This document shows positions 1 to 52,147 of a DNA stretch of 64,000 nt, one piece after another. Position 1 is the first letter of the stretch; each line of letters begins with the position of its first letter. A program made the translations under genes and the position numbers. Below the pieces are notes generated by a model that was not told where the DNA came from, made no database searches, and worked only from the letters and a program-made list of their open reading frames with translations. Origin of the DNA: Trypanosoma brucei. Its lineage: Eukaryota. The stretch spans positions 800,001 through 864,000 of the forward strand of contig CP000068.1 of assembly GCA_000002445.1 (NCBI GenBank), in the 5' to 3' direction.

Positions 1-164
1 AAAGGGAAGAGGAGGAAGAGAAAGAAGAAAAGGTGTACCAATACACAATAAAAAAAAAAAGGACAGTGACGAACTTCCAGAAAGAGAAGTGTAAAAAAAC
101 AACAAAAATAAAATATTAAACAGTTCAGGATTTGTGCTGTTACGGTGAGTCCCAATTACATTTC

Positions 165-2062
165 ATGAGCAGTGAGCCAACTGTTGATGAATCATCTAAG
201 CAGCATTGTAACCAGTTAGCCGTCCCAGAGGCTGCGGTAGCGCCAACAGAACCCCAACACACCACCAATTCTCATTTAAATGACGGAAAGGAAGTAAGTG
301 TGCAACTCGGGGAGCTTGACGAAACACCAGAACATTTACACCCTCTGGTTCATCAAATTAATACATTAAATGAGTGTGATCTCCTTCACATTGCTGAAAT
401 AACGGAATATGTCGTCACTCGAGATGTCTATTCGAGTTTACCATGCCGAGGTGGCAGTTGGTTCCTGCCAGAGGTACGTAACGTGGAGGATAATGAACCG
501 CAGAGGTGTCTTTCATGCATTGGTCGCGGTACAGTTTGCGTGACAATTTGTGGGCGGCGCATTATGTTTCCCATCCTGAGGATGTGTTTGTGTGCGATGA
601 TAATTGCCCTTGTGTGGTTTACGCTCTGGAATGCGTTACCACATTCCTTGCTTGAGCCCGGTGGGTATATTTGGGATACGGCTACTATTGTAATTGTTTC
701 TTCATTCCTCGGTGGCTTAGTATGCCGAGTATTACAGCTTCCAGCACTTGTAGGAGTTCTTTGGGTTGCCATTGCTTGGAATAATATTCCTTACGAGGGG
801 TATCTAACATCAGGTATCGGGTTAGGTATAAAAGACATTTCTTCCAAATTTGGTCTTACTGTGATCATGGTGCGTGCCGGGTTCTCCGCCTACTTAAGTG
901 GTATCGCTCTTCACTGGAAGCATACGCTAATGCTATCATTTATTCCTTTTGCCCTTGAAACAGTCGCGCATGCACTTATCGCCAGCGCTGTTTTCCCCTA
1001 CTACGATTTTAACTGGGCCGTTGTGCAAGGCTCAATTTGCTCTATTGTATCGCCTGCCGTAGTGGTACCCGGTGTGCTTTATTTACAAAATATGGGTTAT
1101 GGTCGTGGCTCTGGGCCCCTTTCTCTCATGGTGTCATCAGTGGGTATAGAGGTGGCAGTTGGGGTTTGGCTTGCAAGCACTTTTTTGGAGAGGATATTTT
1201 TTCAGCAAAGCCTCTTGACTTTCGGGCTTGTTGGTATTGCACAGCTTTTTGGTGGTGCGGGTCTCGGTATAATACTTGGGGTTGCCTTCTTCTACTTTGT
1301 GGAGTTATTTAAAGGCGATGTGCAACGACTTCCGAATGGTAAATTGCAGAAGAAATATCTCTTTCCCGTATTAGACCTGGTCACGTTTGTATTCCTTACA
1401 GTTGCCGCCCTTTTGGTTTTTTCGGGTATGCCGTTAGCCTTGCCGGTGGAGGTTGTATTGCATGCGTATTGTTTGCGAGCACAATGACTCATATGTGTCT
1501 GAGGAAAGGTAATCCAGAATTGGAGGCGCAAAGGAAATATATTGGTAAACGACTTGCACAAGTGTGGGACAACTTGATGATGCCCATCCTTTTCGCCATG
1601 ATGGGAGCAAAGTTAAGTACCGCATCTGTATTTAGCAGAGACTTCTTTCCAAAAGTCCTCGCATGTTTCTTTGGAAGTACGGCTGTTAGATTGGCCGCAA
1701 TATTTATTGTTCAAACTCGCTCTGGATTATCACTGCGGGAGAAACTGCTTGTTTGCGTGGGTTACTGTGGTAAAGCCTCAGCACAGGCATCACTTGGCCC
1801 CGTAGCGACCGCTTTGGTGGCTACTAAAATGGCATCACTTTCTGATGGAGAAGAACCGAGTGTTGAACTCTTGAAGATGAAAAAGTTCGCAGAAAATGTG
1901 CAGCAGGCATCCGCTACATATGTCATGTTTCTGGCAGTTGTGGCTTCTGTGGGACTCATGCGCGGTGGTTTGGCGCTGTTTCAAAAGCAAGAGAGAAGAC
2001 TTCGGGAGGGATCTGAACAGGATAGCGGAACCAGGGAGGAAGAAATGGAACAGAAGGTGTAG
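165..2062 (+). pseudogene. Cation:proton antiporter (CPA/NHE)-like polytopic membrane protein. The reading frame is interrupted: the N-terminal part (165..1487, frame 0) and the C-terminal part (ORF 1469..2062, frame 2) overlap at 1439-1487.
   Basis: The 132..1487 ORF encodes about 10 hydrophobic helices, including a 'SIVSPAVVVPGVL' segment that resembles the CPA 'ATDPVAV' helix. The next ORF, in a different frame, continues with more TM helices ('MMPILFAMMGAKL', 'AAIFIVQ') and a hydrophilic tail. Together they are about 630 aa, the size of a Na+/H+ exchanger. Frame 2 has a stop at 1436-1438 and frame 0 stops at 1485-1487, so the frame change must lie within 1439-1487. The first in-frame ATG is at 165; the ORF-track start at 132 is TTG. 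Confidence 0.5.
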
Positions 2063-5642: not shown

Positions 5643-6888
5643 ATATGATGGTGACAGCTTCAGCTTCTTATGGTTGTATTTTTTGCGTCTTCGTGATCAG
5701 TCGTAGGTGCATTGAGGAAGCACTTTGATGGCGGTAAAAAAAAGAAAAATAATAATGTGCTGGCTTTTAGAAGTCAGGAGCGGCTGTGGCGTATTCTTTA
5801 CCATAGAACTATACTTGTTACCATAGACAGTTGGCGGTCATAACAGGGACGCTATGAGGCAAATGGAAGGGAGCGAAATGAAAAGTTTGCGAGAAGGACG
5901 GTGCAGCGGGGTGGAAACATACATACATAATATACGTATATATGTTCATATATATATATATATATATATGAATTGGTTCGTGTGGTGAGTTCTCTACTGG
6001 GGGGCGGGGGTACAATTAGGTTGTTCGAGTGAAACTTTTTAGTTTCCTCACCCGCGGGTGAGTGATAGCCGGTTTTCATGCACTTTCTTCTTCTTATGCT
6101 TTATTACTACCACAACAATGATAATAATACGTTTGACTCCCCTTGACTCTCTGTGTCTCGTACTCAAATGCTCTTTTGTGGCTCATCCGTCTTGTTCTTG
6201 TTGTTGTTCATCCGCAGCAGAAACGGTTGGCACATATATTTGTATCAATCGTACTTGCTTTCGTTTCTGTTGCGGGAAGTGACCTATGAAGATATTGAAG
6301 GTGCATTTTTTTCTTCTGAATTGTTACAGCCAGTGCTCAGTGTGGTGACTTTAAGGACAGTATTATTTTTATTGGCGCGTTTTGACGTCGTCGGTGCTTC
6401 TTCTGTCTTAGTTTTTTTTTTTCGTTATTCTCCTTCATTTTTTTTCCTCCCTTATGCCGCTTCGTATCATTATTCTCCTTTGCACCATGTATGTTTGTTA
6501 GTTTGTTATGTTCCGTTATTCCTTATTATTCGGCGGGTTATAATGAGAACACAGTGGAGGTTGTGGAGGAGGGGATGAACCTAAAAACGGATTTAAAAAA
6601 CAAAACAAAGGGCTCCCCACGTTTTTTTTTAAAAAAATTATCGTCACGAAAGAAAATTATAATAATGTAAGTATCTTTATTTATTTATTGCTCATGTGTG
6701 CGGAGTTACATCAAATGTTGTCCGCTCCAATTGTTTAATTTCTTTGCACTACTCTCTTTATATGAGTGGGAGCGAAGGGAGCCGTTAAAAGGCGACATGG
6801 TCGCGTCCGTATAGTTCCCTTCAAGAACTCAAACGAAAAAGTTAGAAGAAAAATCAGGAGAAAAAAAAAAGGATTTGTGTTCTGTGAT

Positions 6889-6922
6889 ATGTGTGTGTGT
6901 GTGTGCGTGTGCGTGTACGTGG
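6889..6922. repeat. (GT)n / (GTGC)n microsatellite.
   Basis: 'gtgtgtgtgtgtgtgcgtgtgcgtgtacgtg' in the 5642-8307 intergenic region. A similar GT run lies at 37083-37102. Confidence 0.7.
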
Positions 6923-8306
6923 GAGATTGTTGTTGTAATTTATGTGTATTCCATTTAGTAATTTTCCAAATAACCTTCGTTTTTTAATTATTATTTAATT
7001 TAAAAAAAAAAAGGGAAACGAAGGAAAACAAGGGAGAATTGACTATAACAGCGACGTAATGTGTGTTTGTGTATGGATGGGGGGAAATTCAAGTGGAGTT
7101 TTCATATTGACTTTTGTGTGCTTCAGTCGATAGTGCGTCATAAACTTACTTACAATCAACATTTTGTGATTACGTGGTATCGTCAATGCTCTGCGATTAC
7201 ATTTTCATGCAAAAGCCAATGCTTTATCTTCCCTCTATGCTTCTCATTTTGCAACAGTTTCTGGTCGTAGTATACAAATGTGAATATGTGTTTCAACTGG
7301 TTTATTGTATGAAGTGAGGGAAAAATGCAGAGCGGGTGCTACACTGTTTCGCTTCTTTATGGAAATGTGTTAGTGGTTTAATTCGTGCCGAGTAGTGGAA
7401 ACCTCCGGTGGATATTGCGCTTGACGTTGGCTGTTACACCGCTCAACCATTTTAATGAATATGTGATGTTGCTTTGTATATGTCCATTAATTTGCAGAAA
7501 AGTGGGAAAGTTAGGTCGTTTACCTCACTATGTCTATTAAAATGGCAATAAGAAGAGAGTCACAAAAAAAAAAAAAGGAGGTGCAGCGGTAGTAATGCAC
7601 AGAACTGCCATTGCGATAATTCTGCAACATCATTCATGGGTATATATATTGCAACAAATGTGTTCAGATGATAATGAAGGGGGAAAAAAAGAAAAATCGA
7701 ATTTCATGTCATTACAGAGGAAGGAAGAGGATGGACGAGGTTAATTTATTAGGGCTCAAATTTAGGATAAGTGCAGTTATTAGTTTTTTTTGTTGCTATC
7801 ATTTTCATTTATTAGACGCTGTAGTGGAAAATCTATCATATTTTTGGGAAACTCCTTAGAGTTGCCCCTTTATTCACCTGTTTGATGAAGTTGTACATCA
7901 TCTATGCCTTTTTTCCCCTCTTTTTCCCCCTCGTTTTTTGTGTTATGTTTTTGAACAAACGCCGATTTGAATGCACACCAACAGTGGAAAAGAAAAGTAG
8001 GAGGAGAGACATTTGCTCAACAAGTAGGGAATATTAAAAGAAGGAAAGGGAATACGGAAATAGGCTTAAAACAAAAAGGAGCAGTGCGCTGACACGGCGA
8101 AGAAGAATTAACAATAAAACGTTGGGGCGGTGCCGCTGCGTTTGCTGTCCAGGTGTGCCCTGCGCAAGATATTCATGCGTGTGTGTATATAATCATAAAC
8201 TGGAGGGAAGGAAGGCCACGAACGGGGGTTTTCTTGTCCGTTTTGCTTTCCCGGTTGCGTGACAGTGTGAGTGTGTGCCATTACAGCTGGGCATTAATTG
8301 TAGGAA

Positions 8307-16087: not shown

Positions 16088-17465
16088 CACTGTTATGCCT
16101 ATATATTTCCGTTTTTGGGACTTGGTTCGCGGGAATTATAGTATCTGGACTGTGTTGCGAAATAAATGCACGATCTTTGTCTGGATGTGGGAGCAGTCAA
16201 CAGTCACAATAAGATAATTAAACTCAGTGACTAACGCGTTTAAAGTGTTATAACTGTCTGTAACTGTATTCAGCCACGCCGTCCACCACAGGAGAACGGA
16301 TGTATACTTGAAGTGACAGCCTGAAGTTGTAATTTCAATTTATTTTCTTCTTTTCCCTTTTCCCTTTTCTTTTTTTGAAAATTTAGGAGCTGCTCTCAAA
16401 CACCTTCTATCGCAGACATACATCACGTTGGTTGAAACGAATGTTTCCACATAGATAGGCATGCGAACATCAGGGAGTTAGCGATAATAATGGACATTTT
16501 TCGTAACTTCAGCTACTAAGGAATTTTGAGCCCTGAAAGTAACTGAACCCTGCTGTTGGTTGTGATGTTTGGAAGGCACTTACCCAAATAAGTGAACAGT
16601 GGCGGTTGTGTGCCCTGTGATGTTAAACTCACTGTTACCTATAAGAAGCTTACATCAGGGCTAAAGTTTTCAGCATGTATGTATCCAATATGGCGTCTAT
16701 TAGTTGCTACCTGTTATACTCAGTTTATGTGGTGCGTCACGGTTTACCCTGGGGCTTCATTCTTTCCTATAGCCACTGTGACGGAATGTTTGACAGGTTT
16801 CTTTTTTTTTTTCTAAAAAAAAAATAACAGTGCCCCTTAATAGCTTTTTCGTTATATATTGTCTATTATTCTAAGCTTTGACGGAGCTGTGCATTAGTTA
16901 TGGAGAGTACAACTTCGTTACAATCGTGGAAACGTGTTTACTCACATACGGCCGTGGTCACACCCCTCACTCATTTCACTGAAAATACAAAATTTCATTT
17001 AAATTGGAAGGGGGAAAGACATGCAAAAAATTTTCTTTTTGGTGAAGAACCATGATATCATCCATTCGCTTATCTTTTAATTGGTAAAGAAACTAAATGT
17101 ACCAAAACTGATGTTACCGGCGTTCCAACCTCGTTTCGGCCCTTCCCTTTCCTTTCTTTCCTATTTTTTTTTTTCACTCTTATCAGCACCCCGTTGAAAC
17201 TGCACAACCGTAGAAGTGAGCGAAAAGCGGCGGCTTCGGTTAAGCAGCGAGAGGAGGGAAGGGAAGTTAAAGCAGTGCGTCAGCTAGAATATAGGTGAAA
17301 AAATTTAGGAACGTTTACATCAGGGAAAATTGTACGCAAACGAAAAAAAAAAGTAGCAACAGCAGCAACTGTTATTTTTACGCCAAGCAAAGTTAAAAAG
17401 TTAATATCTATCTGCCACGGAATTATTGATCTGGAAAAAAAAAAACCCTTTAACAACCAGAATTT

Positions 17466-20400
17466 ATGCCACCGCCCACATCTGTTGCCTCAACGGCACG
17501 CTCCAGCAGTGGTGCAACTATCAAACGAAAGGTGGATGACCGCATCCGCAAGGTTATTGAGAATGCCGTACACAAGCGGCATCGCGCACTTCTACTGCTT
17601 GTGGGTGACCGCGGAAAAGATCAAATTGTTAATCTTCACCAGATGGTTTCACACGCCAACCACAACGCAAAGGTGAATGTGTTATGGTGCATGAAGAAAG
17701 AACCGGACTTCGGATCAACAAGCCTTAAACAACAAGAGAAGAAGGCGCGACTTGAGGTGAAGGGTGGAATGTCTACCGATGCAACGAAAGAAGCCTTTCA
17801 GACATTTCTTTCGCAAACCATTATAAGGTTTTGTCAATACAAGGAAACACATAAAATACTTGGGCAAACGTTTGGTATGGCGGTGCTACAAGACTTCGAG
17901 GCTATGACACCCAACACATTGGCGCGAACTATTGAGACCGTGAAGGGAGGTGGCATTATTGTAATAATGTTTCGCGCAATGAAGTCACTGAAGCAGTTAT
18001 ACACCATTGCTATGGATGTCCACTCTCGGTATCGCACAGAGGCTCTTCAAGATGTGGTCCCGCGCTTCAACGAGCGATTCCTTCTTTCTCTAGTTGATTG
18101 CGACACATCACTTTGTGTGGATGATGATCTTAACGTGCTTCCAATCACCGCCAAAATGTGTGCCGTAGAGAGTGCACGAACAACGTCGTATGATGAAACA
18201 TTAGTTCTACAAGGGCGACAAAAGCACGAAGCGGACTTGGCTGCACTAAAGGAACGCCTACGGGCCAGTAATGAAGTGGGGCCACTCATTAGCCTATGCC
18301 AAACACTCGACCAAGGCAAGACCATTCTTTCACTTATGCAGACGGTTGTGGAGAAGTCGCTAAATACAACATGTGTTGTTACTGCTGGTAGGGGTCGTGG
18401 TAAATCTGCAGCACTTGGACTTGCGACTGCTGGCGCTGTGGCACAGGGGTACAGTAATATCTTCTGCACAGCACCATCGCCAGAAAATTTACAAACATTT
18501 TTCGAGTTCGTTGTGCGTGGGTTGCAGGAGCTTGGGTATAAGGAACGCACAGACTTTGAAGCCATGCAAAGCACGAACGTCGAGTTCAGCAAATGCATTA
18601 TACGTATTAACGTTTTCCGCGAGCACAGACAAACTGTTCAATACATTTCTCCGAACGACGCATCAAAGTTTGCACAGGCGGAGTTGGCGATTATTGACGA
18701 AGCTGCAGCCTTGCCGTTGCCGATTGTTAAACAAATGCTCGGCCCGTACTTAGTGTTTCTTTCTTCGACCATCTCCGGTTACGAGGGCACAGGCCGGAGC
18801 CTCTCCATGAAACTTGTTGCAGACATGCGAAAGCACAGTGGAAGCACTAATGCCTCAGTGGCAGGTGACGACCGCCGGCTTCTTCGCGAGTTATCCATGT
18901 CAGATCCTATTCGTTATGGTCCCAATGACCCTGTGGAGTTCTGGTTGAACAAACTGCTGTGCCTTGACGCCACCGTCCGACCGATCGCCGTGAAATCCTC
19001 TCCACACCCAAATTCTTGTGAGTTGTACTACGTGAACCGTGACGCACTCTTTTCTTATCACCCTTTGGCCGAACAGCTGCTGCAGGCAATTGTGGCCATG
19101 TTAGTTGCCGCCCACTACAAAAATCAACCCAATGACCTGCAGCTCATGTCCGATGCACCCGGTCATCACCTCTTCATACTATGTCCCTCTACTGTGGATG
19201 CAAAGAGCGGCATTCCAGACGTATTTTGTGTAATTCATGCATGCGAGGAGGGACACGTTTCGTCCGAAGCAATCAAAAGTAACCTCAGCCGGGGGTTGCG
19301 CCCTTCTGGGGACCTAATTCCCTACACCCTATCGCAGTATTATCTCGAAGAGGGATTTGCAAAACTTGCAGGTCTACGAATTGTTCGTATTGCCACAAAC
19401 CCGGAGTTGCAACGCGCCGGATACGGCTCGCGCGCTCTCGAGCTACTGCAGCAGTACTACACGGGCTCTGTGTCGTTACGTCCTGCCGCGTCTGCTGCTG
19501 CTACAGAAAACAATACGGAATTAAAAGCAGTGGACGATGCCGATGAAGTGAGTAGCACCATCTCACATACCATCAAACCGCGCAAACGCATACCCAGCCT
19601 TTTAGTGCCTCTCATTGAGAGACCTTATGAAGAGATTGACTACCTTGGCGTGAGTTTTGGTGTGACAACGCCTCTGTTTAACTTCTGGAAGCGGGGAGGG
19701 TTCGAGCCACTGTACCTACGTCACGCGGCGAATGAGTTAACTGGAGAGCATAGTTGCGTTATGGTTCGCTCGTTTGGATTTGACCTCGGGCTACTCCGTG
19801 CTGAGTTCCGTCGTCGATTTATTCCCCTTTTAGCGATGCCATTTCGCCAACTTCCAACAGAATTGGCACTGAGTATATTAAAGGATGTTGATGTTAATGA
19901 CCCACAAAAATTAGCAGCTGCCACTGACCTCTCTCATGTGGCGGAGCATAATGTCCGCGTGGCAGGCCAGCCTCAGTGTACATGGAAGGAACTGCAGGAA
20001 ATATTCAGCATCAGCGATTTGAAGAGGTTAAAGCTAAATGCCACTACATTTGTCGAGGGTGGCCACGTTTTGGACCTCGTTCCTGCTTTAGCGAAATTGT
20101 ATTTTGAGTCGCGTTTATTTCACCTTCCCGATGGGGCAGAGGGTGTCGTACTCTCCCACGCGCAGGCTGCAGTACTTTTAGGCGTTGGGCTTCAGTGCCA
20201 AACTATTGAGGAAGTTGGTCAGCAGGCGGTATTTTCTGGCGTACCAACACAGCAGCTGCGTGCCTTTCTACAGAAGGCAATTTCTCGTATAGTAGACCAT
20301 TTCACGCGCCTGCAGAAGCTGAAATTGACTGGATCAAAAGAAGAAGAGACTGTGAAAAGGAATGGGGGGAATGACGATGCGGATGAAAACACCCATGAGA

Positions 20401-20585
20401 TTTACGATAAGGAGGGACGTGTAGTTGGGTTATCCGTGGAAAAGAGAGTCCGGAGTGTAATTAATGTAGATTCGACTTTGCTGCGCGACGCGAAGTCGGC
20501 AACAGTCGGAGCAAGAAATGATGCAGGAGGAACAACAGGATTGCAGCGGGCGTTCAAGCGGTCAAAGAAAACTCGTCGCGGCTGA
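17466..20585 (+). CDS. NAT10: RNA cytidine acetyltransferase (NAT10/Kre33 family).
   Basis: 1039 aa. The N-terminus 'LLLLVGDRGKDQIVNLHQMV...VLWCMKKE' matches the NAT10 N-domain. 'HKILGQTFGMAVLQDFEAMTPNTLARTIETVKGGGIIV' and the Walker-A 'TAGRGRGKSAALGLATAGAVAQGYSNIFCTAPSPENL' match the NAT10 helicase module. 'VNVFREHRQTVQYI', 'ELAIIDEAAALPLP' and 'GPYLVFLSSTISGYEGTGRSLSMKL' are conserved. A GNAT region follows ('GLRIVRIATNPELQRAGYGSRAL'). Confidence 0.9.
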   Translation: MPPPTSVASTARSSSGATIKRKVDDRIRKVIENAVHKRHRALLLLVGDRGKDQIVNLHQMVSHANHNAKVNVLWCMKKEPDFGSTSLKQQEKKARLEVKGGMSTDATKEAFQTFLSQTIIRFCQYKETHKILGQTFGMAVLQDFEAMTPNTLARTIETVKGGGIIVIMFRAMKSLKQLYTIAMDVHSRYRTEALQDVVPRFNERFLLSLVDCDTSLCVDDDLNVLPITAKMCAVESARTTSYDETLVLQGRQKHEADLAALKERLRASNEVGPLISLCQTLDQGKTILSLMQTVVEKSLNTTCVVTAGRGRGKSAALGLATAGAVAQGYSNIFCTAPSPENLQTFFEFVVRGLQELGYKERTDFEAMQSTNVEFSKCIIRINVFREHRQTVQYISPNDASKFAQAELAIIDEAAALPLPIVKQMLGPYLVFLSSTISGYEGTGRSLSMKLVADMRKHSGSTNASVAGDDRRLLRELSMSDPIRYGPNDPVEFWLNKLLCLDATVRPIAVKSSPHPNSCELYYVNRDALFSYHPLAEQLLQAIVAMLVAAHYKNQPNDLQLMSDAPGHHLFILCPSTVDAKSGIPDVFCVIHACEEGHVSSEAIKSNLSRGLRPSGDLIPYTLSQYYLEEGFAKLAGLRIVRIATNPELQRAGYGSRALELLQQYYTGSVSLRPAASAAATENNTELKAVDDADEVSSTISHTIKPRKRIPSLLVPLIERPYEEIDYLGVSFGVTTPLFNFWKRGGFEPLYLRHAANELTGEHSCVMVRSFGFDLGLLRAEFRRRFIPLLAMPFRQLPTELALSILKDVDVNDPQKLAAATDLSHVAEHNVRVAGQPQCTWKELQEIFSISDLKRLKLNATTFVEGGHVLDLVPALAKLYFESRLFHLPDGAEGVVLSHAQAAVLLGVGLQCQTIEEVGQQAVFSGVPTQQLRAFLQKAISRIVDHFTRLQKLKLTGSKEEETVKRNGGNDDADENTHEIYDKEGRVVGLSVEKRVRSVINVDSTLLRDAKSATVGARNDAGGTTGLQRAFKRSKKTRRG

Positions 20586-24533: not shown

Positions 24534-24755
24534 ATGTCGAATCCTAACTTCTGGACAACTGTACTGAACTGGACCTTCGCGCGCGGTTACATCCGCATTC
24601 CAATCGTTTTTACGATTCCTATCGTCTTCAACAAGTACGCTTTGCATCAATTTGAGCCCCTCTTCCAGCAGTGGAACGCTGGGCACAACCAACGTGATAT
24701 ATGGGATCGTTTGGAGGGGAAGGTTGCACTGATGCTGGAAGAGGAAGCGGTATAA
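24534..24755 (+). CDS. Small (73 aa) hypothetical protein with one predicted TM helix ('GYIRIPIVFTIPIVF').
   Basis: ATG at 24534, immediately downstream of a strong polypyrimidine tract with an AG at 24388-24490. It is on the same strand as the flanking genes and fills an otherwise 1.5-kb gap between 23977 and 25553. Confidence 0.35.
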   Translation: MSNPNFWTTVLNWTFARGYIRIPIVFTIPIVFNKYALHQFEPLFQQWNAGHNQRDIWDRLEGKVALMLEEEAV

Positions 24756-29498: not shown

Positions 29499-30795
29499 AT
29501 CAAAGGAATAATGGGAAGGAGGAAGTTGAAAACGTGTTCGTGACAGTTATGTAAAATTTATAGGGAATTAGAACTCATGATGCCGCGGGCGGTGGTTGCG
29601 CGATAAGGGAAGAACTGACTATACGTGGTTACCAGCTAACGAAATGGTGAAAAGTGACTATTTGAGGAGTTAACAAAAGCGAGCGTACGCAAATTTCAGT
29701 GACGTCGGAGAAGCAGTGGTCACATCGGGAAAGACATGTAATATTACCGTGTGTGTGAGCGGAGGTGGTGGTGGGGCTACAGAACGACACACGAATATCC
29801 ACAGTAGTTGTTCCTGGGAGGCTAAACGTATTTCCTTTTCTCCTTGGGACTATAACGAAAGTCCGTATCGAATGTATTATTGTTACTACTATGATCATTA
29901 ATTCATTATGAAGTTGACGGACATCTTGAACACATACCGGCGCTGCAATGACAAAAATTTTGTAATTATGGGGGATAGGGTTACTTTCAGCTGTGGTTGT
30001 GCCGTACTGCTACATGTCTTTATCGTTTTTCACAGGGTATGTTGCAGAATAGTTTGAACGGTTAATTCAAATGTGGAAGATTTGTTTATCTACTACTACT
30101 GTTTTTTATTATATTTATTATTTATTTCGATATTTTAACATTTCTTTCTTCTATTTTTTTTTTCGTTAGCTCGTTATGCCTTCACGGGTGATGACTTAAG
30201 CTTGGTGTTAAGAGGAAGTGACGTTAAACACATAATAACTGCGCGAAAGACATTGAGACATGTTGAAGAAAGGTTAGCCGAGCCGCTTGCCCTCTCCCGC
30301 CCCCCCCCCGGACAATCATATCGCGCGCAGTTATTAAAAGAAAAAGAATTTAAAATATTAACAAATATTGAGCGCACGTTTTAGATCCGTTGAACATACT
30401 TGCTTTGGCTTATGGTACCAGCGAAAAACGCAGAGAAAGCAGAGGTGTTTGTCAACTTCGTCGGTAACAAAACCATTTTTTGGAGGTCAATGCGAAAATA
30501 ACTTTATTTTCATGTGAAAAAGTTTCTGATAATAGCCAAAGTACTTTCCTCACCAACGCGTCGCACTTTTATGTGCCTTCCACGAGGAAAAAAAAAAGAA
30601 CAATAATAAATGAGAACTTGTTTCGACTCGTATTTCTCTGTGATTCACTTCCCACTTGTTATTCCTTTCTTCCCTACAACTCTTTCTGAAACTCTCATTA
30701 ATTACGCCAAATTTGTTTCATAAAGGGGACTAAGGGTGATTAAAAGAACTTAGCGAGGAGCGAGTTGTTGAAATAATAAAATCACCACTTTTGAC

Positions 30796-36249: not shown

Positions 36250-37627
36250 ACGGAGGACGCGCGCCTTACCGTTACATGGTTGTCGATGACAAGGAGCCAA
36301 CGCAATTTTTGGTTACGCGGCAAGCCGAGCCCGCTCTCGTGTGGGACATCGTGGGAACGGTAACATCAGCATTCAAAAGGCGGGAAGGAACCACACCAAA
36401 CGAATGAAAATGTGTGGGACCGGAGCTCTTTTGTTGGGGGATGTGATTTTGTGGTGAATCAGAGGGGTCTTAACGTCTGTTGTTTTCCCTTTCATCCCTA
36501 CTTTCTGTGGGGGCTCATATCGCTTCTCGCACTGTTAGTGATGTACCATGCACTTCATCTGATCCTTTACTTCTTTTTTGCGTTCGACACCATTTTTGCC
36601 GGTCGTACTCGCCAAGTTTCACTGCGTTTCCAGTTGGTCGCTATGTGAATTTTTTTTGTGAAGTGGAGGCTTCTTTTCCTCATCTTTTCTCCACCCAGTA
36701 CCAGTCTCTAAACTTTTCTTCAGTGACAGTTGCTTTTGTACTTTAAGGTGGTATGCGGCTCCAAGGTATGTGCAGCCCCATGTTTCCATAACCCAGAACT
36801 GAGGGTGGCTTCATACGGATACTTTCATTGTCGCGATATCTCTTGTTTAGAGAAAACTGCTTTAATATTGTTGGGCCGTGTGATTAGTGGTAGGTGTTTT
36901 AGTGCCTATTCTCATTGTCTAATCACATACCTTCCCCGGTCTACTGGTGGTACGTGGGGTCAATAGGCATCAAGAAAGCGAGCAGGTTAGGGATATGTGG
37001 AGACTTGCCTCACTTATGCTTCGGGCTAACTCTGTATTTGTGTGACTCGGTATCACTGCTTCATATGCACTTCCGTGCTACCGCGTGTGTGTGTGTGTCT
37101 GTGTTTGCTTCGGCTGCCTCATTTTGGTCGGCAGTGCCTTCCACTGGAGTGACGCGTCAGCTTTGGAATCTCTGGGTGGCACTTCTTTCGCAAGATGTTT
37201 TGATTCAGTCATTTCACCCATATTTTGTTTTTGGCGTTACCTGCTGCTTTTCTTTTCGTGTGTTCATTTTTAAGTAAAGTTTAACTTTAAAAAGAAAAAA
37301 GAGAAGGAATAAGGAAATAGAGGGATAATCGGTAAGGAGCCACATTCAGGGAGACAAAGGGTTTCGGGTAAAGGGAGAGGAAGTAATTATAACCACAGAA
37401 ACTGAAACAAAGGTGGAAGAAAGTTAAGTAAACAGTAGGAAAGAGAGCAGGAGAGAAGTAAAACGGACCATAGGGGAACACCCATATACTTTTCACTTCT
37501 GTAGACAGGAAATAGGGAAGAAAGTGAAGAAGATATTATTCGACACTAATCCGCAGGAACGGTATACATAAGTTTTCAAAACTTATTTGTGTTTCTGGTG
37601 TCGGCTTTCCGCAGACGTTCAGTGGAA

Positions 37628-38986
37628 ATGCACGTACTTGGCAGAGATCCTACGTCCAACTGCCTCCCCAATGCTAGTGGAGATGAGGCCAAACAAATGA
37701 ATGGGCGTGCACGTAACCCTTATGCTGCAAGAAATGGTTTCAATGTCAACAGCGGGGAAGAAACGCAATGTAGCCCGATTGGTTCACCTATAAACCCACA
37801 TTGTCGCGAGGGTTCTGGAGAATACGCGGTGCAACCCGTTAACGTACAGGCGCGTTACCGTCTGCAAAGCCCACCAATATCTTTTGCATCGGGAAATCCA
37901 TCATTTCCCACCTCACCGCGTGATAGTGCTCTACATTCCACGCCACACGTGCGTAGTTGCAGTAACTCTTTTCCTTGCGATGGATTTTGTAGGCCAAACC
38001 CTTCTGGCCAGACGTTTAGCCCGGCGATGGGGAGGTCCCCTGATTTTAGTAACGATCCCAACATGTGCATGCCACCGTACCCCGGCGGTTACACGCCTTC
38101 AGGTTTTGTTATGCCTCCTGCACTTGCAACGGCTGCACCACCACCTCGTACTGATGTGATGGGGCGCGCACCGGTACCCGACGGTCAAGCGTCCATGCGA
38201 CCCAAGCGGCCGGTGAGTTCACCCATCGCTTGCGGTCATGGCTCCCGTTACGTCTCACCGGTTGTGTTGTCCGTTTCACCAAATTATCAAGTTGGATCCC
38301 ACCCGCTGTGTAACCCAACAGGTCCCCAATCCGTTGGGTGTAATAATGTGCATGTTGCAGTTGGCAGCGTGGAGCCCGCTCAAAGCGCACACTCCAAAAT
38401 GACTACGGGTGATGGGAGTTCAACCGTGTCTGGTGGTAGTGGTAGCTCTATTCGTGAGGACTTACCCTTGTGTTCCAATGATGGCGTATGCACGTTAATT
38501 AACGACCGCAAACATCAGCGACGGTTTGCACATACCTGTCGTCTGTTCCCTTGTTATCATGGACACATAGCGCGGCATTCAAAACTGTTCCGGCATGCAC
38601 CTGGACAAGTTGCACAGTCGGAGGAACTGCTCAACAACGGCGATGGGTCAAAGAAACTTCCTGCAGAGGCGCTGACAAGCGTAAGTTTCAGTTCTATCAG
38701 TCGCGAGGCCGCCAACGCCTATCGTATCATTGTTAGTCACAGAAATAAAAGTTATGAAATATTCGGTGACTGGATGAATGTCCGTGTGCATACCTTTAAG
38801 CGTTACTTAAATCAGGTGTATAACGTGCCGCCACCATCGCAAGTGCTAGTGCGGGAGGAAGGCAATGTCCCACTCGATGACGATCTTGAATCTGTAGGAC
38901 ATTATGGCATTAAACAGGATGGTGTGGTGATTCTAAGGTGGAAGGATGAAGATGAGCCTCTTGCTGTTTCTCTTGAACAGCTGTAA
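37628..38986 (+). CDS. Hypothetical protein with a Cys/His putative zinc-binding motif and a C-terminal ubiquitin-like domain.
   Basis: The first ATG is at 37628; the track start is GTG. 'CSNDGVCTLINDRKHQRRFAHTC' (C-x5-C-x7-H-x5-H) is reminiscent of PBZ-type fingers but does not fit the consensus. The C-terminus 'PPSQVLVREEGNVPLDDDLESVGHYGIKQDGVVILRWKDE' has a ubiquitin-like pattern (inference). The N-terminal half is Pro/Ser-rich low complexity. Confidence 0.5.
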   Translation: MHVLGRDPTSNCLPNASGDEAKQMNGRARNPYAARNGFNVNSGEETQCSPIGSPINPHCREGSGEYAVQPVNVQARYRLQSPPISFASGNPSFPTSPRDSALHSTPHVRSCSNSFPCDGFCRPNPSGQTFSPAMGRSPDFSNDPNMCMPPYPGGYTPSGFVMPPALATAAPPPRTDVMGRAPVPDGQASMRPKRPVSSPIACGHGSRYVSPVVLSVSPNYQVGSHPLCNPTGPQSVGCNNVHVAVGSVEPAQSAHSKMTTGDGSSTVSGGSGSSIREDLPLCSNDGVCTLINDRKHQRRFAHTCRLFPCYHGHIARHSKLFRHAPGQVAQSEELLNNGDGSKKLPAEALTSVSFSSISREAANAYRIIVSHRNKSYEIFGDWMNVRVHTFKRYLNQVYNVPPPSQVLVREEGNVPLDDDLESVGHYGIKQDGVVILRWKDEDEPLAVSLEQL

Positions 38987-41900
38987 GAAGGTTTCATTAC
39001 TTTGTTTTTTTTCTTTTACCGCATGGCATCGTGGTAAAAGGAAAAAAATATATATATATATATGTGTATGTGTTTATATATATATATACGTGTTTATATA
39101 TGTTTATAAAGAACGAAAGGAAAAGGAAAAAAAAGAGCAGTGGGAAGGTGATGCCAAAAATAAACGCTGTTTCGTGCTAATGAACTGGTGGTGGAAAATG
39201 TGGAGAGGAAGAGGAAAAAAAAAAGAAAAAGAAAGGAGCGAATTCGTAATTATATTCAATTATACACGCGCGCACCTGCCACGGAACATTGGCAAAAAAT
39301 ACATAAATCTATTGATATATATATATATATATATCAACAAATATATCTCTCCCTCGAATTTTAACAAACCCTTCACTTCCCAATATAATAAAATGCAACC
39401 GGCAAGCCAAAGGTGCGGTGACACCTCAACATTTGGAAAAAAAAATAAGTCAACACAAACATACGCAGACAACGAGAGAAAGAGAGAGAGAGAAGAAGAA
39501 ACAGAAAGAAAAGAAATAAGAAAAAAATTTATAATAATAACGATGATGATGATAATACTGAACGGAAGCAGAAAAATTATATATATATATATATATATGA
39601 GTTATCATACGTATGTATATTTAGGTGAAGGTATTCCGAAGAAGAAGGAGGGGGGAAAAGTAGAGAGTGTGAAAGTGTAAAAGAGTTGAAGAGGAAAAAA
39701 AATAAATAAAAGAATATATATATATATATATTATATATATAAGAATTGAGATGAGATGAAATGGAAAAAGGTGAAGCAACTGAGTTAAATGAAAAAAAAA
39801 AATGCTCCTTCAATAGCCTAATGGCTGTAGTGCAGTTGGCAACACAAATGTGGCGTTGTTGTTGTGCTTTGCGGCTTCAACTATTGTGTTATTTGTTTAG
39901 TAATACTGTGGTTGTTTTCTCTACTAATCTTGTCATCATATATTTGTATGTCTGCATACGCCTGTGTTTTTATAAATTGGAGAGGAGGATAATGAGAGTT
40001 CCACTAAGGAAGAGAGAAAGAAAGAAAGAAAGAAAAGGACAAATGTGAGGGAAAATTTAAAAAAGATATATATATGAGTTAAATGACTTGGTTGTGGTGA
40101 GATGAGAAATAAATAAATAAATAAAAGACGTTGAAGCATTATAGACAACACGAAAGAATGAGTAAATAGACAACTTTACGACATTTATACCTAAACTCTT
40201 TTTTTTCCTTTGTTTGTTCGTTTGTTTTGAAAAGAAGAGAAGAGAATAAAGGAACTTAGGGATATTGAAACAGTAACGAGTGTGTGAGGGAAAAGTAGTC
40301 AAAAGGAGAGAAGAAGGTGAAAAAACAAAAAAAACAAAAGAAAAGAAGAAAAACGAAAAAGTTGTGACGGTAAAGAGGGGTTCATTTTTTTTCCTTTTCT
40401 TTAATTTTATTTTTCATTTGGTTGTTTCTTTTGTTTAAAAAAAAAAAAGAAAAAAGATGTGAAGTTATTGCGGAAGGTGACTAAATAAATAATTAAGTAA
40501 CGTGGACTTCACGCACGATGATAAGGAGACACAAACGCACAGGCACACAAAAATAAATAAATAAATAACGACAGGGATAAAAAGAAGAGGTTAATTTAAG
40601 CTTAAAAACAAAAAAAAAATATATATATATATATAACAAACGCTCCTTTGAAATTATTAATTGTTTTTTTTATCAATCTAAAGGAAAAGATATGCAAATA
40701 TAAATGAATGCATACTGAAATTTTAAAGAATAAAGAAAAAAGTTTAAACCAGAGCGATTAATAAAGATAAAAGAAAATTAAGATGATAATGAAAAAGAAA
40801 AAAGAAAAAAAACGTTCCCAATTAATTTAAATGGGTGATGTTCCTCATGTTTTCAATTGTTTATTGTTTCCTTTTTCCAATGTCAGAGAAGACAACAACA
40901 AAAGATTAAATGTCCCCCTTTTTTTTCCTTTTGTTTTTTTTTGCGTACTTCCGTCTTTTTTTTTCCTTGTATCGTTCATAATAAATCCTTCTAGTGAATG
41001 CAATGGAAAGAAAAAGTGAAGAAGAGATAAGGTTCTCCTTCTTCCATTTTTTCTTTTTTTTATTGTATATCTCTCGTGTTATTTATGTATTTATATATAT
41101 TTTTTCCCTCTAAAGTTCGAGGGAACAAAAACGATATGTTTACTGCGGAATTCCAAGATTAATGAAGGGCAAGTGCCGAAAGGGAAAGAGAGAAGGGGAG
41201 GGGAGGGGAGAGGGGGAAAAAAAAAGAAGTAAACAAAGTGGGAAATATTTGTTTTTCCTTTTGATTTTTTTAATTTTTGTTTTTAAAGGAAGAACTGACG
41301 CATCTCTGGATGCGTGATGTGTGTGAGATAAAAGGGAAAAAGGGAGATTAATGAGGCGTTGAGGGGAGTGGGTAAATTAATATATACAATTTGTTTTCAT
41401 GCGATTTTGTTCCGAATTGTTTTCTTATGTTTTTTGTGTCCACTTCATTTTTGTTTGGTTTCATTCTTTTTTTTTCCTCTATTTTGCTGTTTGTTCTTCA
41501 CAATTTATCTCTTCTTTTTTTGTTTTTTTTGTGCTTATATATATATATATATATATTTATTTATATTTGTTTATGGTGTTACTTTCTCTCCATTTACTAT
41601 TAATTGCCTTTCAATTTTTTTTCTTACACTTACTCTTTACCTTTAATTGTTTCTTCTTTACTTTTCAATTTAAATATTTTGTTTTTTTTTCTCCTTACAA
41701 AAGAAAAAAAATTCCTTAACTAACTTCATATAATTGTAGACTCTCTGTGATTGAAGGTAAATATGAGTGGCAGTTTGAGTGAGGTTTTGATGTGACTTCC
41801 TTTTCGTTTTTGTGTTTTTTTTATTTTTGTCGTTGTTTCCTTTCTTCTCTTTTTTTTTTTTAGAAAAAAAATCCCCTACATTATTCGCCAGCATAACTTT

Positions 41901-44009
41901 GTTTTCTTTTTCTTTTTTCATTTTCATTTCTCTCCCTTCCTCCTTTTCCCCTCCTTTTAGTAACTTATTTGGGATATTTGGCAACAGAAGAGATGAAAAC
42001 GGAGGGAACCGCATTGTATCTTCTCATTTTTTGTTTTTTTTGTTTTTGCACCTTTTCCTTTAAATTCCATATCTTATGTTGTGTCGTGAGATGGTGACTT
42101 TTTTTATGTTTTTTTTTTAAAGAAAATTAATTAATGAGAAAATGTGTATTTTAAACATTTCATGTCGCCGTTTGTGTGTGTGTGTGTTGTTGTTGTTGTT
42201 TTTTAGCGAAGAGACAAAATAGCGGAAATGACAAAAAAACCAAAAGAGTAAAAAGGAGGAGTGAAGGTTAGGGCTGGAGTGGAATAAATTAAAAAAAAAG
42301 AAAAGGAGACAAAGAGAAGTAAAAACACAAAACGATTCTGAAATTTAAAAATAAAAAAAGGGGAAGGCAGGTAGCGAATGCGTCAAGCGGTGAGAAAACG
42401 CGTTCAGCTCTCGACACTTCCGCATTTTTTTTTCCCTGTCGTGTTGGTGTTTTATTTCGTTTTTAATAACCGGAACATGTTCGATTTTTTTTTTTTCTGA
42501 AAAAGAAAAAAAAAGGGAAGTTGAGGATATGAGTGAGTAAATGCGCGTCTTATTTTTGAGTTTGTGGCACTTCTGATTTTAATAAAGAACAGTGTGAGGG
42601 GTAGGGGAGAGAGAAAAAGTCCTTTTCATCTTGTTTACGTGACCCGCTACACTTTTGAATTAAGTTGCGGCAGTTAATCCCACAGTCTTTTTTTTTTGCG
42701 TAAATGAGATGCAAATTAAACAGGAAGGGAAAGAGAATAAACAGAGAGAAGAGAGGGGGGGGGGGGAAATAGAATGGTGAAAGAGTTTTCGTGATTTTAT
42801 TCCCTCTTGTGTTTTTTTTTTCCTCCTCTCCCCCCCATGATGTGGAAGATCCTCTTGATTTGTGGTGTATTTCATTTTGGTAGTGTTCCAACTCTCTCAA
42901 TTTTTCCCCATTTTTTCTTAAAAACCTTACGAGTTTGTTTGTTTGTTTGTTTTCCCCCCTCCTCCTCCTCTATGTTTCCATCCATCCATCCATCCATCCA
43001 TCCATCTCCTAAATTGACCTTCAGTTGTATATAAATACGACCCCATCCCTTCTAATTTTTTGTTGATGTTTTCCCGTTTTTTTTCTCTCTCTGCATGTGT
43101 GTGTGTGTGTGGTGTGTGGTGATTATTGTTAAAATTACTACTATTAATATTATTATTACCTTATATATTTTTTTTCCCTTTTCAATTTTGTGTTACACAT
43201 ATCAAAATAACGTACGCCACCTCAACCACCTCGTCTACTCGATTGCTTTCTTTTTTGTGTGTGTGTACGACAAAAAAGAAAATTCCACACAAACACACCA
43301 CACACATGCGCATTACACTCCAAAGTGTTTAACATGAAATGAAGGAAAAAACAAAATAAAATAAAGGAGGAAAGGAAGAAGGAAGGAAGGAAATAAAGGA
43401 GAGCGCGCATTAAAATGCATGGTGATGTTTGAGCAGCGCTAAACTTCCACATCTTTTTTTGCTTCCTTTTATATTTAACAACCTGATTTACTTCTTTTTT
43501 GTTTTTTACTCCCCTCTCCCTTCATTTTTTTGTTCTAGTCACTAACCTTCATCGCCATCAATCCCTCTTTTTCGTTTGTTTATTGTTTCGCTGTTTTTTT
43601 TTTCACTTTTTCGTTTACACGTTTTTGCTCTCGGTGGTGGTGGCGGCGGTGTTTTTTTTTTCTTTTTTTTTCCTCACTTGTTGATCTCTCTCCCTATAGC
43701 TGTGTTCGGTAATTGTAGTTGTAGAAGTTACACCGCTGTTTAACGTCTGCTATTTTACATATTTGCATTTGCGTAGGAGTGCAGTTGTGCATTAAAGCTC
43801 CTCTTTTCCCTCTTTCCTTTTTTCTTCTTTTTTGAACTCTTTTTTTTTTTAAAAAAAAAACATTTTAACTTGCCTTTTCTTCTTCTTGTTGTTGGATATG
43901 CTTTTAGCGTCGTGTGGTGTCGCATATAGCACAAGAAGCGAGAGGGAGGAAGAGGGAAAAGAAAAAAGAAAAGAATTCCCTTTCCGCACATAGTTCGCAC
44001 AGTTATATC
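38987..44009. repeat. A ~5 kb ORF-free, AT-rich low-complexity region made of alternating homopurine (GAAA/AAAT/AG-rich) and homopyrimidine (T/CT-rich) blocks with many microsatellites.
   Basis: No credible ORF on either strand; the track ORFs here translate poly-Lys/Phe/Ile repeats. (TA)n runs lie near 39048-39070, 39315-39335, 39578-39600, 39715-39740, 40620-40637 and 41538-41560. (AAAT)n lies at 40108-40125 and 40551-40566. (GT)n lies near 42174-42190 and 43093-43118. (CCAT)n lies at 42978-43006. A G12 run lies at 42755-42766. Confidence 0.6.
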
Positions 44010-44729
44010 ATGGCCTTTTGGGAAAAGATATGGTGCCGTCTTTTCGGCCGTGTAAATATCCCTGGTGTAGTTTACAGTGATGAAATTGATGCAACTGCCA
44101 CATATGACCGTCAGCAGCGGGAATCCATGTGGCGAGGTAACTTACGTAATGTCCGTCTCGACACGGTGCCACCGCTTTTGTTACGAACGAGTGGCGCCGA
44201 AAATGCCTTATTGGGACCCGAAGAGGAACCCTACACATTTTGGGAGCGGGTTGGTGTTGTTCCTGTACATCCCTCACGCGTGCGGCCCCGGCAATATTAT
44301 CATCCGATAACTGATTTTGGGTTGTACGATTATGATGAGGTGTCGCCGGAGGAGCGGGATTTAACGGCACGTTGGTTGGCGAAGGTGTTGGAGTTCAACG
44401 CAGCGGTGCCACTCGGCATTCTCTGTGCAGCTGGTTGTTTAGTGCTTCCTTTACACACGGTATATCGTATGCCCCTTTTGGTTGCATCGGCGGCAACGGG
44501 GGTAATGTTTGAGATCACACATTCGTACATGAATGCGGGGAAGGAACGACAGGATCTTGACGACTTCATATTGGCAAAGGAAATTTGGTATATCAAAAAC
44601 GTGGAGGCGTATCAGTTAGACATTCCGCTCATTCCCAAAGGACGTGAGGCGGAGTACCAGGCATTCCTGGATGGCTCTAATGGAACTTCGCAAATGTTGC
44701 CTGATGAGCTAGCGGAGGCCCTCCACTAA
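44010..44729 (+). CDS. Hypothetical protein (239 aa from the first ATG).
   Basis: The first in-frame ATG is at 44010; the track start at 43914 is GTG and its first 32 codons are Lys/Glu low complexity. A hydrophobic segment 'AVPLGILCAAGCLVLPL' is present. An antisense ORF at 44008..44370 is judged spurious. Confidence 0.45.
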   Translation: MAFWEKIWCRLFGRVNIPGVVYSDEIDATATYDRQQRESMWRGNLRNVRLDTVPPLLLRTSGAENALLGPEEEPYTFWERVGVVPVHPSRVRPRQYYHPITDFGLYDYDEVSPEERDLTARWLAKVLEFNAAVPLGILCAAGCLVLPLHTVYRMPLLVASAATGVMFEITHSYMNAGKERQDLDDFILAKEIWYIKNVEAYQLDIPLIPKGREAEYQAFLDGSNGTSQMLPDELAEALH

Positions 44730-45230
44730 AACAACAGTGGAAGGGCAATGCAAAAAGGCGGAGACATCAGTGTTTGGTTTCATCCGTCGCGTCGGTACGG
44801 AATTGGTGGAGAAGGGCGGGGTGGGGGGGGGGGGAGTAAACTCGTGTTGGGTTTCTTTCCCTTTTTTAAAAAAATAAAGGTTGTAAATGGTTTTGTTTTG
44901 TGCGGTATTTGCTGTTGTTCTGTTTCATTTTCACTTTGTCACGAGTTTCCTTTTTGTGCATGAGTGGGTCGCATTATCGATGCTTATGGTGCGACCGCCA
45001 TGCTCCTGTGGTTTTGCTGTATCACACACGAAAACACAAAAAAATATATTGTAAGTTGTGCCCGCTTGTACGAGGTGTTTCTTGGTGTATTCTACTTTTT
45101 CCCGTTTCTTAAGTATAACACAACCTTTTTTTTGGTTGTTCTTTGTTATTTACACCTTCTGATCTCTCTTGTCCCTTACCTAGTAGTCACATTACTGCAT
45201 TTTACCGGCTTAGTGGAGAGGCTGGTGCTC

Positions 45231-46064: not shown

Positions 46065-46495
46065 TGGCGATTTTTGGGGTAAATATTTAATCGAAAATTA
46101 TACGCTTCACTTTTGTAGGCACTGGATGTAAGGACTCCCAGTTCGCGATGTCTCAAGGACTTCTCGGTTATCGTGCATAAATCAGGTTGTGTCCTTGCGC
46201 GAGTTGCTTGAATCCTTTCAAACATCTTCGCGTGTCTATCGCGATATTAGAGTTACCAAGGTCTTCACAATGTGAATAACTCTGTGAAGGTTTCGTGAAC
46301 AATACTGCGAAAGCGTGATCAACTTCCCTATTGTCGTTTCTGTTTTATCCCATATGATCTTCGCCCCTTGCCTCCACATAATAGGTTTTTTTTTCTTTGA
46401 AAAGGGTTAACAACCGGCACATTAACCCAAATAGGAGATACGATCACAAACCAGAAAAAATTTACTCGGACCATTGTTAGTCACGTTACGCTTAA

Positions 46496-46556
46496 ATTCT
46501 TTTTAGCTTCGTGAGTTTTTCCCCCTTAATTCGCTATCCATTCATAGCAACCTTTT
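46496..46556 (+). promoter_or_regulatory. Polypyrimidine tract plus AG upstream of the ALO gene.
   Basis: 'cttaaattctttttagcttcgtgagtttttcccccttaattcgctatccattcatag' lies immediately 5' of the ATG at 46561. Confidence 0.45.
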
Positions 46557-46560
46557 GTAT

Positions 46561-51763: not shown

Positions 51764-52147
51764 ATGCCTCTATGGTCCTTTGTGGAGTTGTCGAGCAGCT
51801 TCCTGAGCCCCGTAACCGTTGGCGTATCTCCTTTTTTCCGGCCACTGGAGGAGCGACTTAACACGGAACCGCCAGCTGTGCGGGAGGTCGTTTGGGAATA
51901 CATGCACTGCACGAAGCGCGCCATCAACACGCGAATTATAGGGTTCTGCGAGCCAACACTAAACAAATGTGTGGATGATTTGCGATTGTACCTTAAAGCA
52001 TCAGCGGCTGGTGGGAGTGACGAGGCTTCTCTCGCGGAAGTATTGAGGCGCCGTCGTGGTGAGGTGGATGCGGATTCGTTACCTTGGGAATCACGTGCGG
52101 AGTACAAGGAGTGGCTCCGCACTCAGGGAAGGTTGAAGTGTGGGTAA
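51764..52147 (+). CDS. Small (127 aa) hypothetical protein.
   Basis: ATG at 51764, preceded by a long polypyrimidine tract at 51430-51617. It is on the same strand as its neighbours and the protein is non-repetitive ('VWEYMHCTKRAINTRIIGFCEPTLNKCVDDLRLYLKA'). A larger antisense ORF at 51481..52122 (-) overlaps it and is judged less likely. Confidence 0.4.
   Translation: MPLWSFVELSSSFLSPVTVGVSPFFRPLEERLNTEPPAVREVVWEYMHCTKRAINTRIIGFCEPTLNKCVDDLRLYLKASAAGGSDEASLAEVLRRRRGEVDADSLPWESRAEYKEWLRTQGRLKCG

Follow-up and report, generated by a model that had tools for sequence, protein, structure and literature searches.

In trypanosomes, a polypyrimidine tract and the accompanying trans-splice AG are reportedly coupled to polyadenylation of the messenger RNA (mRNA) upstream. 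Poly(A) sites of Trypanosoma brucei lie a median of 142 nt before the next spliced-leader site (interquartile range, 123-178 nt), and 3′ untranslated regions (UTRs) measure 388 nt at the median and reach up to about 6 kb (Kolev 2010, PMC2936537). Six percent of 3′ UTRs exceed 2 kb, some measure at least 5 kb, and the longest tend toward mRNAs for RNA-binding proteins and kinases (PMC8982893). The 3′ UTR of RBP10 contains numerous low-complexity stretches, including an (AU)10 element that raises expression and poly(A) tracts that lower it (PMC8982893). Many polypyrimidine tracts are unused in 3′ UTRs; DRBD18 has been proposed to mask them, and its depletion results in shortened mRNAs together with spliced-leader-capped RNAs of the distal UTR (PMC9380746). 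Here we describe the spacer between the genes Tb927.5.2620 and Tb927.5.2630, which lies in a 64,000-nt stretch of chromosome 5 of T. brucei TREU927 (GenBank assembly GCA_000002445.1, contig CP000068.1, positions 800,001 to 864,000 of the forward strand; hereafter, the window). An initial annotation, made from the sequence, had singled it out as a gene-free block of alternating homopurine and homopyrimidine low-complexity DNA inside a unidirectional gene cluster. This block is a spacer between two coding sequences (CDSs) inside a polycistronic unit, and we consider it probable that it consists mostly of a long, low-complexity 3′ UTR of Tb927.5.2620.

The guess that the DNA came from a trypanosomatid was right. 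The translations of both flanking open reading frames (ORFs) are identical to T. brucei brucei TREU927 proteins, a 1.6-Mb chromosome carries both, and a Tb927_05 (v4) coordinate is obtained by adding 800,000 to a window coordinate. With this offset, CDS positions in the window match those in the tables of Kolev (2010) for Tb927.5.2500 (803555-805642 in Tb927_05_v4), Tb927.5.2520, Tb927.5.2610 (835332-836249), and Tb927.5.2720 (ZPR1; 861441-862856). The flanking genes are assigned to Tb927.5.2620 (upstream) and Tb927.5.2630 (downstream) from their coordinates after the same addition, and like all large ORFs of the window they lie on the plus strand. Published transcript mapping in procyclic forms gives Tb927.5.2630 one spliced-leader site, at chromosome position 843908, with a 5′ UTR of 102 nt and a dispersion of 0 (Kolev 2010 Table S12). 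A prediction from the rule of a pyrimidine tract followed by AG, made independently of the published map, agrees with this site, and a second pyrimidine-rich stretch (43870-43893) lies upstream of the acceptor. Because the downstream 5′ UTR is so short, nearly the whole block falls on the 3′ side of the upstream gene. An unusually long pair of UTRs had been among the explanations offered at the outset; it is the best-fitting of them, with the amendment that the pair is very unequal.

The same mapping places the spacer within one transcription unit. Tb927.5.2160 to Tb927.5.2760 form a single RNA polymerase II (Pol II) unit in which no internal start was called (Kolev 2010 Table S14), and spliced-leader sites have been mapped for Tb927.5.2630-2720, which follow the spacer downstream (Kolev 2010). 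Transcription is therefore not ended at the spacer. Elsewhere in the window, the transcript of Tb927.5.2500 ends at 807827, a 2,185-nt 3′ UTR within the 2,664-bp spacer 5643..8306 that is subject to alternative 3′ processing, and the poly(A) site of Tb927.5.2610 lies 110 nt before the spliced-leader site of Tb927.5.2620 (Kolev 2010).

The initial annotation held that the gap of about 5 kb between two same-strand genes contains no credible ORF, and our searches agree. From the stop codon of 37628..38986 to the ATG of 44010..44729, the spacer (38987..44009) measures 5,023 bp, and no coding window was detected in its six frames. A codon log-odds score was trained on 22 genes of the window against intergenic triplets that exclude this spacer, and it was applied in 219-nt and 300-nt windows. 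None of the windows of either size scored above 0 in any frame of the spacer; among controls, 99% of in-frame windows in real genes were above 0, and two small genes kept out of training scored +0.12 and +0.23. Including the spacer in the background left the outcome the same. The longest ORF (244 aa, 38946..39680) is of low complexity, the others are short or of low complexity, and none of ten spacer ORFs was on record when looked up exactly in a collection of 15 billion protein sequences. A search for tRNAs in the spacer with ARAGORN returned no gene, and an Rfam search returned nothing at gathering scores, the best lenient matches reaching 17-29 bits against cut-offs of 90-100. There was likewise no tblastx match between the spacer and the orthologous spacers of other species. 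Of the 3′ UTR motifs that we looked for (RBP10 UAUUUUUU, AU-rich elements, PUF, and CAUAGAA), none is enriched in the spacer beyond local composition.

The composition of the spacer is real and far beyond chance. The alternating blocks are located as initially described, the A/G-rich ones at 39.09-40.79 kb (interrupted), 41.19-41.39 kb, and 42.19-42.39 kb, and we found more of them at 42.69, 43.29, and 43.89 kb. All of the reported simple repeats, (TA)n, (AAAT)n, (GAAA)n, (GT)n, and (CCAT)n, and the G12 run are present. Other figures need revision: GC content, put at about 25%, measures 32.2% overall (18-45% in 100-bp bins), and the remaining spacers of the window, given as 0.3-1.5 kb, range from 270 to 2,664 bp, the one behind Tb927.5.2500 being the second longest. 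The purine fraction per 100-bp bin runs from 0.19 to 0.83 across the spacer, with a variance of 0.034; shuffles give 0.002, and no other spacer exceeds 0.019. Of the spacer, 21.7% consists of uninterrupted purine or pyrimidine tracts 12 nt or more in length, versus 0.3% of shuffles and 0-13% of other spacers, and tract density is about two to three times that of most other spacers of the window. Tracts that reach 20 nt or more number 12 for purine and 7 for pyrimidine, with a maximum of 52 nt, and the density of A and T runs measuring 8 nt or longer is 7-10 times that of the remaining window. Microsatellites include six (TA)n arrays, (AAAT)n at 40107 and 40551, (AAGA)7.5 at 40006, and (TG)n at 42173 and 43096. 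A self-comparison, which had been suggested as a way of finding hidden long repeats, displays low-complexity families only and no such repeat, and comparison of the spacer with the other 59 kb of the window gave no match outside low complexity. As far as the window goes, no further copies that would mark a dispersed repeat or retroposon remnant (RIME, ingi, SIDER-like) were found, low complexity aside.

A sharp switch in composition occurs at ~40.85 kb. The 1,864 bp before it (38987..40850) have a purine fraction of 0.63 and a GC content of 0.30, and their tracts of at least 12 nt are 15 of purine and 3 of pyrimidine; the 3,159 bp after it (40851..44009) have a purine fraction of 0.44 and hold 25 pyrimidine tracts of that length. 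The distal pyrimidine tracts include those at 40913-40942, 41033-41061, 41836-41861 (AG at 41862-3), 41897-41958 (62 nt; AG at 41959-60), and 43491-43536, and combinations of tract and AG in this part could be candidate cryptic processing sites. At six positions (40432, 41684, 41850, 42109, 42485, and 43840), a T run of 9-12 is succeeded within a few bases, often via AG, by an A-rich run of 8-12. These junctions could serve as cryptic splice acceptors or form U/A hairpins in RNA.

We propose that Pol II transcribes the spacer within the polycistronic precursor and that Tb927.5.2630 is trans-spliced at 43908 by way of the 43798-43833 tract and the acceptor AG at 43906-7. That event would place polyadenylation of the upstream mRNA ~140 nt further upstream, near 43766. 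Since polyadenylation is coupled to downstream trans-splicing, the 3′ UTR of Tb927.5.2620 would be ~4.8 kb long, and the whole mRNA ~6.6 kb, if the site near 43766 is its own. The internal pyrimidine tracts would normally be silenced by RNA-binding proteins such as DRBD18, and they may also yield shorter isoforms, for example, ones with an end near 40.8 kb. Trypanosome UTRs are commonly built of such A runs, U runs, (UA)n arrays, and purine or pyrimidine tracts, which replication slippage creates and rearranges. Some observations weigh against this hypothesis. The distal 3 kb has pairs of tract and AG that equal or surpass the real acceptors of the window in strength, such as the 62-nt tract, and the sequence alone would predict processing inside the spacer. 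Furthermore, the spacer evolves faster within T. brucei than its neighboring spacers do (2.3 vs. 0.7-1.7 substitutions per 100 bp), and because both substitution and gap turnover are faster, most of its sequence is under little constraint.

We compared the window with nine related loci, which together represent six trypanosomatid lineages. The order of the ubiquitin-like-domain gene (Tb927.5.2620 in the window), the 239-aa gene (Tb927.5.2630), an NMNAT-like gene, in some loci a cytochrome b5 gene, the arabinonolactone oxidase gene (ALO), and SDA1 is common to all loci, bar some gene losses. The spacer 3′ of the ubiquitin-like-domain gene is the longest among the annotated spacers of its ~20-kb locus in the window and in nine of the nine related loci. 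Its length is 5,023 bp in T. b. brucei TREU927, 4,972 bp in T. b. gambiense DAL972, 5,048 bp in T. equiperdum, 4,480 bp in assembly GCA_003543875.1, 3,691 bp in T. vivax, 2,551 and 1,440 bp in two assemblies of T. cruzi, 2,226 bp in T. theileri, 2,202 bp in T. grayi, and 3,056 bp in L. mexicana. With low complexity masked, no nucleotide or translated similarity was found between the spacers of different species. Along the spacer, a purine-rich composition gives way to a pyrimidine-rich one in T. brucei, T. theileri, and T. cruzi and, to a weak degree, in T. grayi. As far as these alignments go, the length of the spacer persists and its sequence turns over.

Turnover is visible at short distance as well. 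In the alignment with DAL972, gap columns amount to 8.5% for the spacer and substitutions to 2.26 per 100 bp, compared with at most 3.4% and 0.7-1.7 for other spacers and with 0.15-0.28 substitutions for the two flanking CDSs. Indels of the spacer are located in (TA)n, (AAAT)n, (TCCA)n, G-rich, or T-rich tracts. Assembly GCA_003543875.1 is without 489 bp that correspond to 39588-40076 of the window, and the edges of this segment are two (TA)nGAGTTA direct repeats (~39578-39603 and 40066-40081), which suggests a repeat-mediated deletion or an assembly collapse. Gene content also varies among the loci. That of T. vivax has no arabinonolactone oxidase gene (tblastn negative; 17076-19275 there), one being present in the other species, and the T. 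brucei window lacks, at 46065..46560, the cytochrome b5 gene that stands between the NMNAT-like gene and ALO in T. cruzi, T. theileri, T. grayi, and L. mexicana.

Other explanations for the block deserve consideration. The mRNA of Tb927.5.2620 might end near 40.8 kb, before the tracts at 40913-41061, and the distal 3 kb might belong to one or more spliced-leader-capped, polyadenylated long non-coding RNAs (lncRNAs). Both the sharp change at ~40.85 kb, with 3 pyrimidine tracts before it and 25 after, and the abundance of strong tract and AG sites in the distal part speak for this possibility, as does the annotation of more than 1,400 lncRNAs in T. brucei, many of them intergenic (1,428 in Guegan 2022, PMC9200285); moreover, distal 3′ UTR RNAs of just such a type are freed by DRBD18 depletion (PMC9380746). 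However, two published catalogs do not include one here. No novel transcript is listed on chromosome 5 between 785,591 and 872,003 in procyclic forms (Kolev 2010 Table S7), and a nanopore study of two life stages reports no novel lncRNA in this part of the chromosome (Kruse and Goringer 2023 Table S5). In addition, neither flanking gene is among the undetected ORFs (Table S2) or the genes with alternative 3′ processing of Kolev (2010), and unused pyrimidine tracts are common in 3′ UTRs. The lncRNA locus proposed in the initial annotation thus finds no entry in either list and stays as a rival that we regard as possible but rather unlikely. We can also imagine, as a speculation to which we give little weight, that alternative polyadenylation would be decided within the spacer, a zone of conserved length, where DRBD18-type masking or unmasking of ~25 tracts would set the level of full-length mRNA of Tb927.5.2620, a candidate post-transcriptional regulator. 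The distal 3 kb could then also be released as functional spliced-leader-capped non-coding RNAs, and it would be the length and the density of tracts, not the sequence, that are under selection. Such a zone would explain why the spacer has stayed the longest of its locus in species from T. brucei to Leishmania while its sequence turned over completely.

Readings that give the DNA itself a role appear still less probable. A chromatin or replication landmark could take the form of nucleosome exclusion, binding of the origin recognition complex (ORC), a dormant origin, or Pol II pausing or attenuation with base J or H3.V, and a replication origin or termination site had indeed been suggested early on. 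The density of A and T runs would suit nucleosome exclusion, and R-loops and nucleosome depletion track poly(Y)/poly(A) inter-CDS motifs (Briggs 2018, PMC6294496), so these features are plausible here but generic. However, every mapped origin and nearly every core ORC1/CDC6 site is at a unit boundary or an H4K10ac site (Tiengwe 2012), whereas the spacer is interior to a unit that has no internal start and that continues, with mapped spliced-leader sites on the genes that follow, to Tb927.5.2760. R-loops and origins moreover correlate little (Briggs 2018), and the conspicuous G-rich elements are either missing from DAL972 or shorter there. We therefore treat chromatin-landmark readings as disfavored rather than refuted, and as quite improbable. 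That same variation bears on the suggestion that homopurine and homopyrimidine mirror tracts form functional H-DNA triplexes or, by extension, G-quadruplexes, which we think very doubtful. The many long tracts, a canonical G-quadruplex motif, and the G12 run would be suitable material, but a single strict purine/pyrimidine mirror repeat (42028-42047) has arms of 10 nt or more, the remaining mirror matches are (TA)n, and the long purine tracts are without mirror symmetry. The G-quadruplex motif is 12-13 nt shorter in DAL972 and GCA_003543875.1, the 116-nt segment that bears the G12 run is missing from DAL972, and comparable motifs occur outside the spacer (G-rich at 37349 and 44814 on the plus strand; C-rich at 30290). 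Hardly credible, finally, is a missed or decayed protein-coding gene, as implied by the annotation of DAL972, in which the orthologous spacer carries "hypothetical protein" ORFs at 12082-12402 (plus strand, 106 aa) and 14744-15046 (minus strand, 100 aa). Their counterparts in the window, roughly at 41399..41719 and about 43.7 kb, are low-complexity strings rich in phenylalanine and lysine that score strongly negative for coding, and both ORFs are probably annotation artefacts. The absence of any coding 219-nt window while two real small genes score positive, the lack of tblastx matches to spacers of other species, and the failure of all ten ORFs to appear among recorded proteins likewise argue against such a gene.

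The features on which the preferred reading, a long 3′ UTR of Tb927.5.2620, is based are collected in Table 1, together with the flanking genes and the principal repeats.

Table 1. Coordinates of the spacer between Tb927.5.2620 and Tb927.5.2630, its elements, and its flanking genes (window positions).
Feature	Position	Strand	Basis or remark
5′ UTR of Tb927.5.2620	37276..37627	+	Spliced-leader addition site 37275/37276 (Kolev 2010 Table S12: 837276/837275, 352-353 nt)
CDS of Tb927.5.2620, 452-aa ubiquitin-like-domain protein (UniProt name)	37628..38986	+	Exact match to XP_844934/AAZ11375; gene ID from coordinates
Putative maximal 3′ UTR of Tb927.5.2620, ~4.78 kb	38987..43766	+	End predicted, 142 nt back from mapped 43908
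Proximal purine-rich segment	38987..40850	+	Five of six (TA)n arrays, (AAGA)n, (AAAT)n, many A runs
Distal segment, pyrimidine-rich blocks alternating with short purine-rich ones	40851..43797	+	Many pairs of polypyrimidine tract and AG
Sole canonical G-quadruplex motif of the spacer, GGGGAGGGGAGGGGAGAGGGGG	41195..41216	+	Within 52-nt homopurine tract 41178-41229
G12 run	42755..42766	+	Inside 116-nt segment absent from T. b. gambiense DAL972
(TCCA)7.5 microsatellite	42977..43006	+	The (CCAT)n of the initial annotation; two units shorter in DAL972
Polypyrimidine tract for Tb927.5.2630 trans-splicing, 36 nt	43798..43833	+	Longest such tract within 200 nt upstream of mapped site (criterion of Kolev 2010)
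AG splice-acceptor dinucleotide of Tb927.5.2630	43906..43907	+	Read from sequence, directly before mapped 843908
5′ UTR of Tb927.5.2630, 102 nt	43908..44009	+	Kolev 2010 Table S12
CDS of Tb927.5.2630, 239-aa conserved protein (UniProt name, transmembrane protein)	44010..44729	+	Exact match to XP_844935/AAZ11376

What has been published on Tb927.5.2620 would be consistent with a function in gene expression. It is listed with the localization "Cytoplasm (points)" and in the class Gene Expression, where the tethering screen of Erben 2014 is cited, and it was 15-fold over-represented among melarsoprol survivors (Carter 2020 Table 2, PMC7568655). A Pfam search of the protein identified no domain at an E-value of 0.01 or better. 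A candidate regulator with a very long 3′ UTR would fit the published trend. The 5′ UTR of the gene is likewise long, at 352 nt against a median of ~130 nt.

Other observations concern the surroundings of the spacer. The Logan contig ERR7929161, which contains the upstream gene, spans 37345-39071 only and ends in the first (TA)n array. The lncRNA nt_1667.1 (Tb927_05_v5.1:929,096-929,834) was considered as a transcript of the spacer and was set aside since the window covers 800-864 kb; v4 and v5.1 coordinates agree at the left chromosome end. In the 270-bp spacer 3′ of Tb927.5.2630, positions 44814-44834 hold the G-rich motif GGGCGGGGTGGGGGGGGGGGG, with a G12 run and a G-quadruplex pattern. NAT10, at 17466..20585, is Tb927.5.2530. 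Two small genes with mapped spliced-leader sites, Tb927.5.2560 (73 aa, 24534..24755) and Tb927.5.2670 (127 aa, 51764..52147), score as coding, and an ORF map with a 150-aa minimum shows both stretches as empty spacers. At the left end of the window, the plus-strand ORFs 132..1487 and 1469..2062 share 19 nt, or 4 nt if counting starts at the first ATG.

The importance of these results beyond the locus is limited. The spacer would illustrate the appearance of a very long 3′ UTR in raw sequence, rather than a hidden gene, an origin, or a terminator. One point is mildly notable, namely that the length of the spacer is conserved despite complete turnover of its sequence. A spacer that is the longest of its neighborhood in all six lineages without conserved sequence points to selection on the UTR length or processing architecture of Tb927.5.2620 orthologues. 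In addition, the switch at ~40.85 kb offers a convenient natural test case for how the trans-splicing machinery ignores internal tracts.

Comparison with known systems places the spacer among familiar structures. Intergenic lncRNAs, such as grumpy (Guegan 2022, PMC9200285) and the Tb5.NT transcripts (Kolev 2010), likewise originate between CDSs of the same strand and are spliced-leader capped, polyadenylated, and non-coding; unlike these, the spacer interval has no such transcript in the catalogs of Kolev (2010) and Kruse and Goringer (2023). The motifs of R-loop-prone, nucleosome-depleted inter-CDS regions, that is, polypyrimidine and poly(A), are extremely dense in the spacer (Briggs 2018, PMC6294496), but the R-loop property is genome-wide and generic, and no observation sets the spacer apart beyond its size. 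With respect to the standard inter-CDS processing region (Matthews 1994; Kolev 2010; Siegel 2010), the last ~210 nt of the spacer are a textbook case, in which a 36-nt tract and an AG precede one mapped spliced-leader site and the 5′ UTR measures 102 nt, whereas the part upstream is ~12 times the median 3′ UTR of 388 nt.

The RBP10 3′ UTR (7.3-8.5 kb; Bishola Tshitenge and Clayton 2022, PMC8982893; PMC9380746) differs in that its extent, isoforms, and regulatory fragments come from Northern blots and reporters, whereas the 3′ end of Tb927.5.2620 is placed by prediction, and Tb927.5.2620 carries a ubiquitin-like domain, is no RNA recognition motif protein, and is not known to be developmentally regulated. 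The two nevertheless have much in common. Both extend for several non-coding kilobases after a CDS inside a polycistronic unit, both contain low-complexity stretches, (AU)n, poly(A) tracts, and many internal polypyrimidine tracts, and in both the upstream product is a regulator of gene expression, a candidate one for Tb927.5.2620. The spacer is an extreme yet ordinary trypanosome inter-CDS region, of a kind already known.

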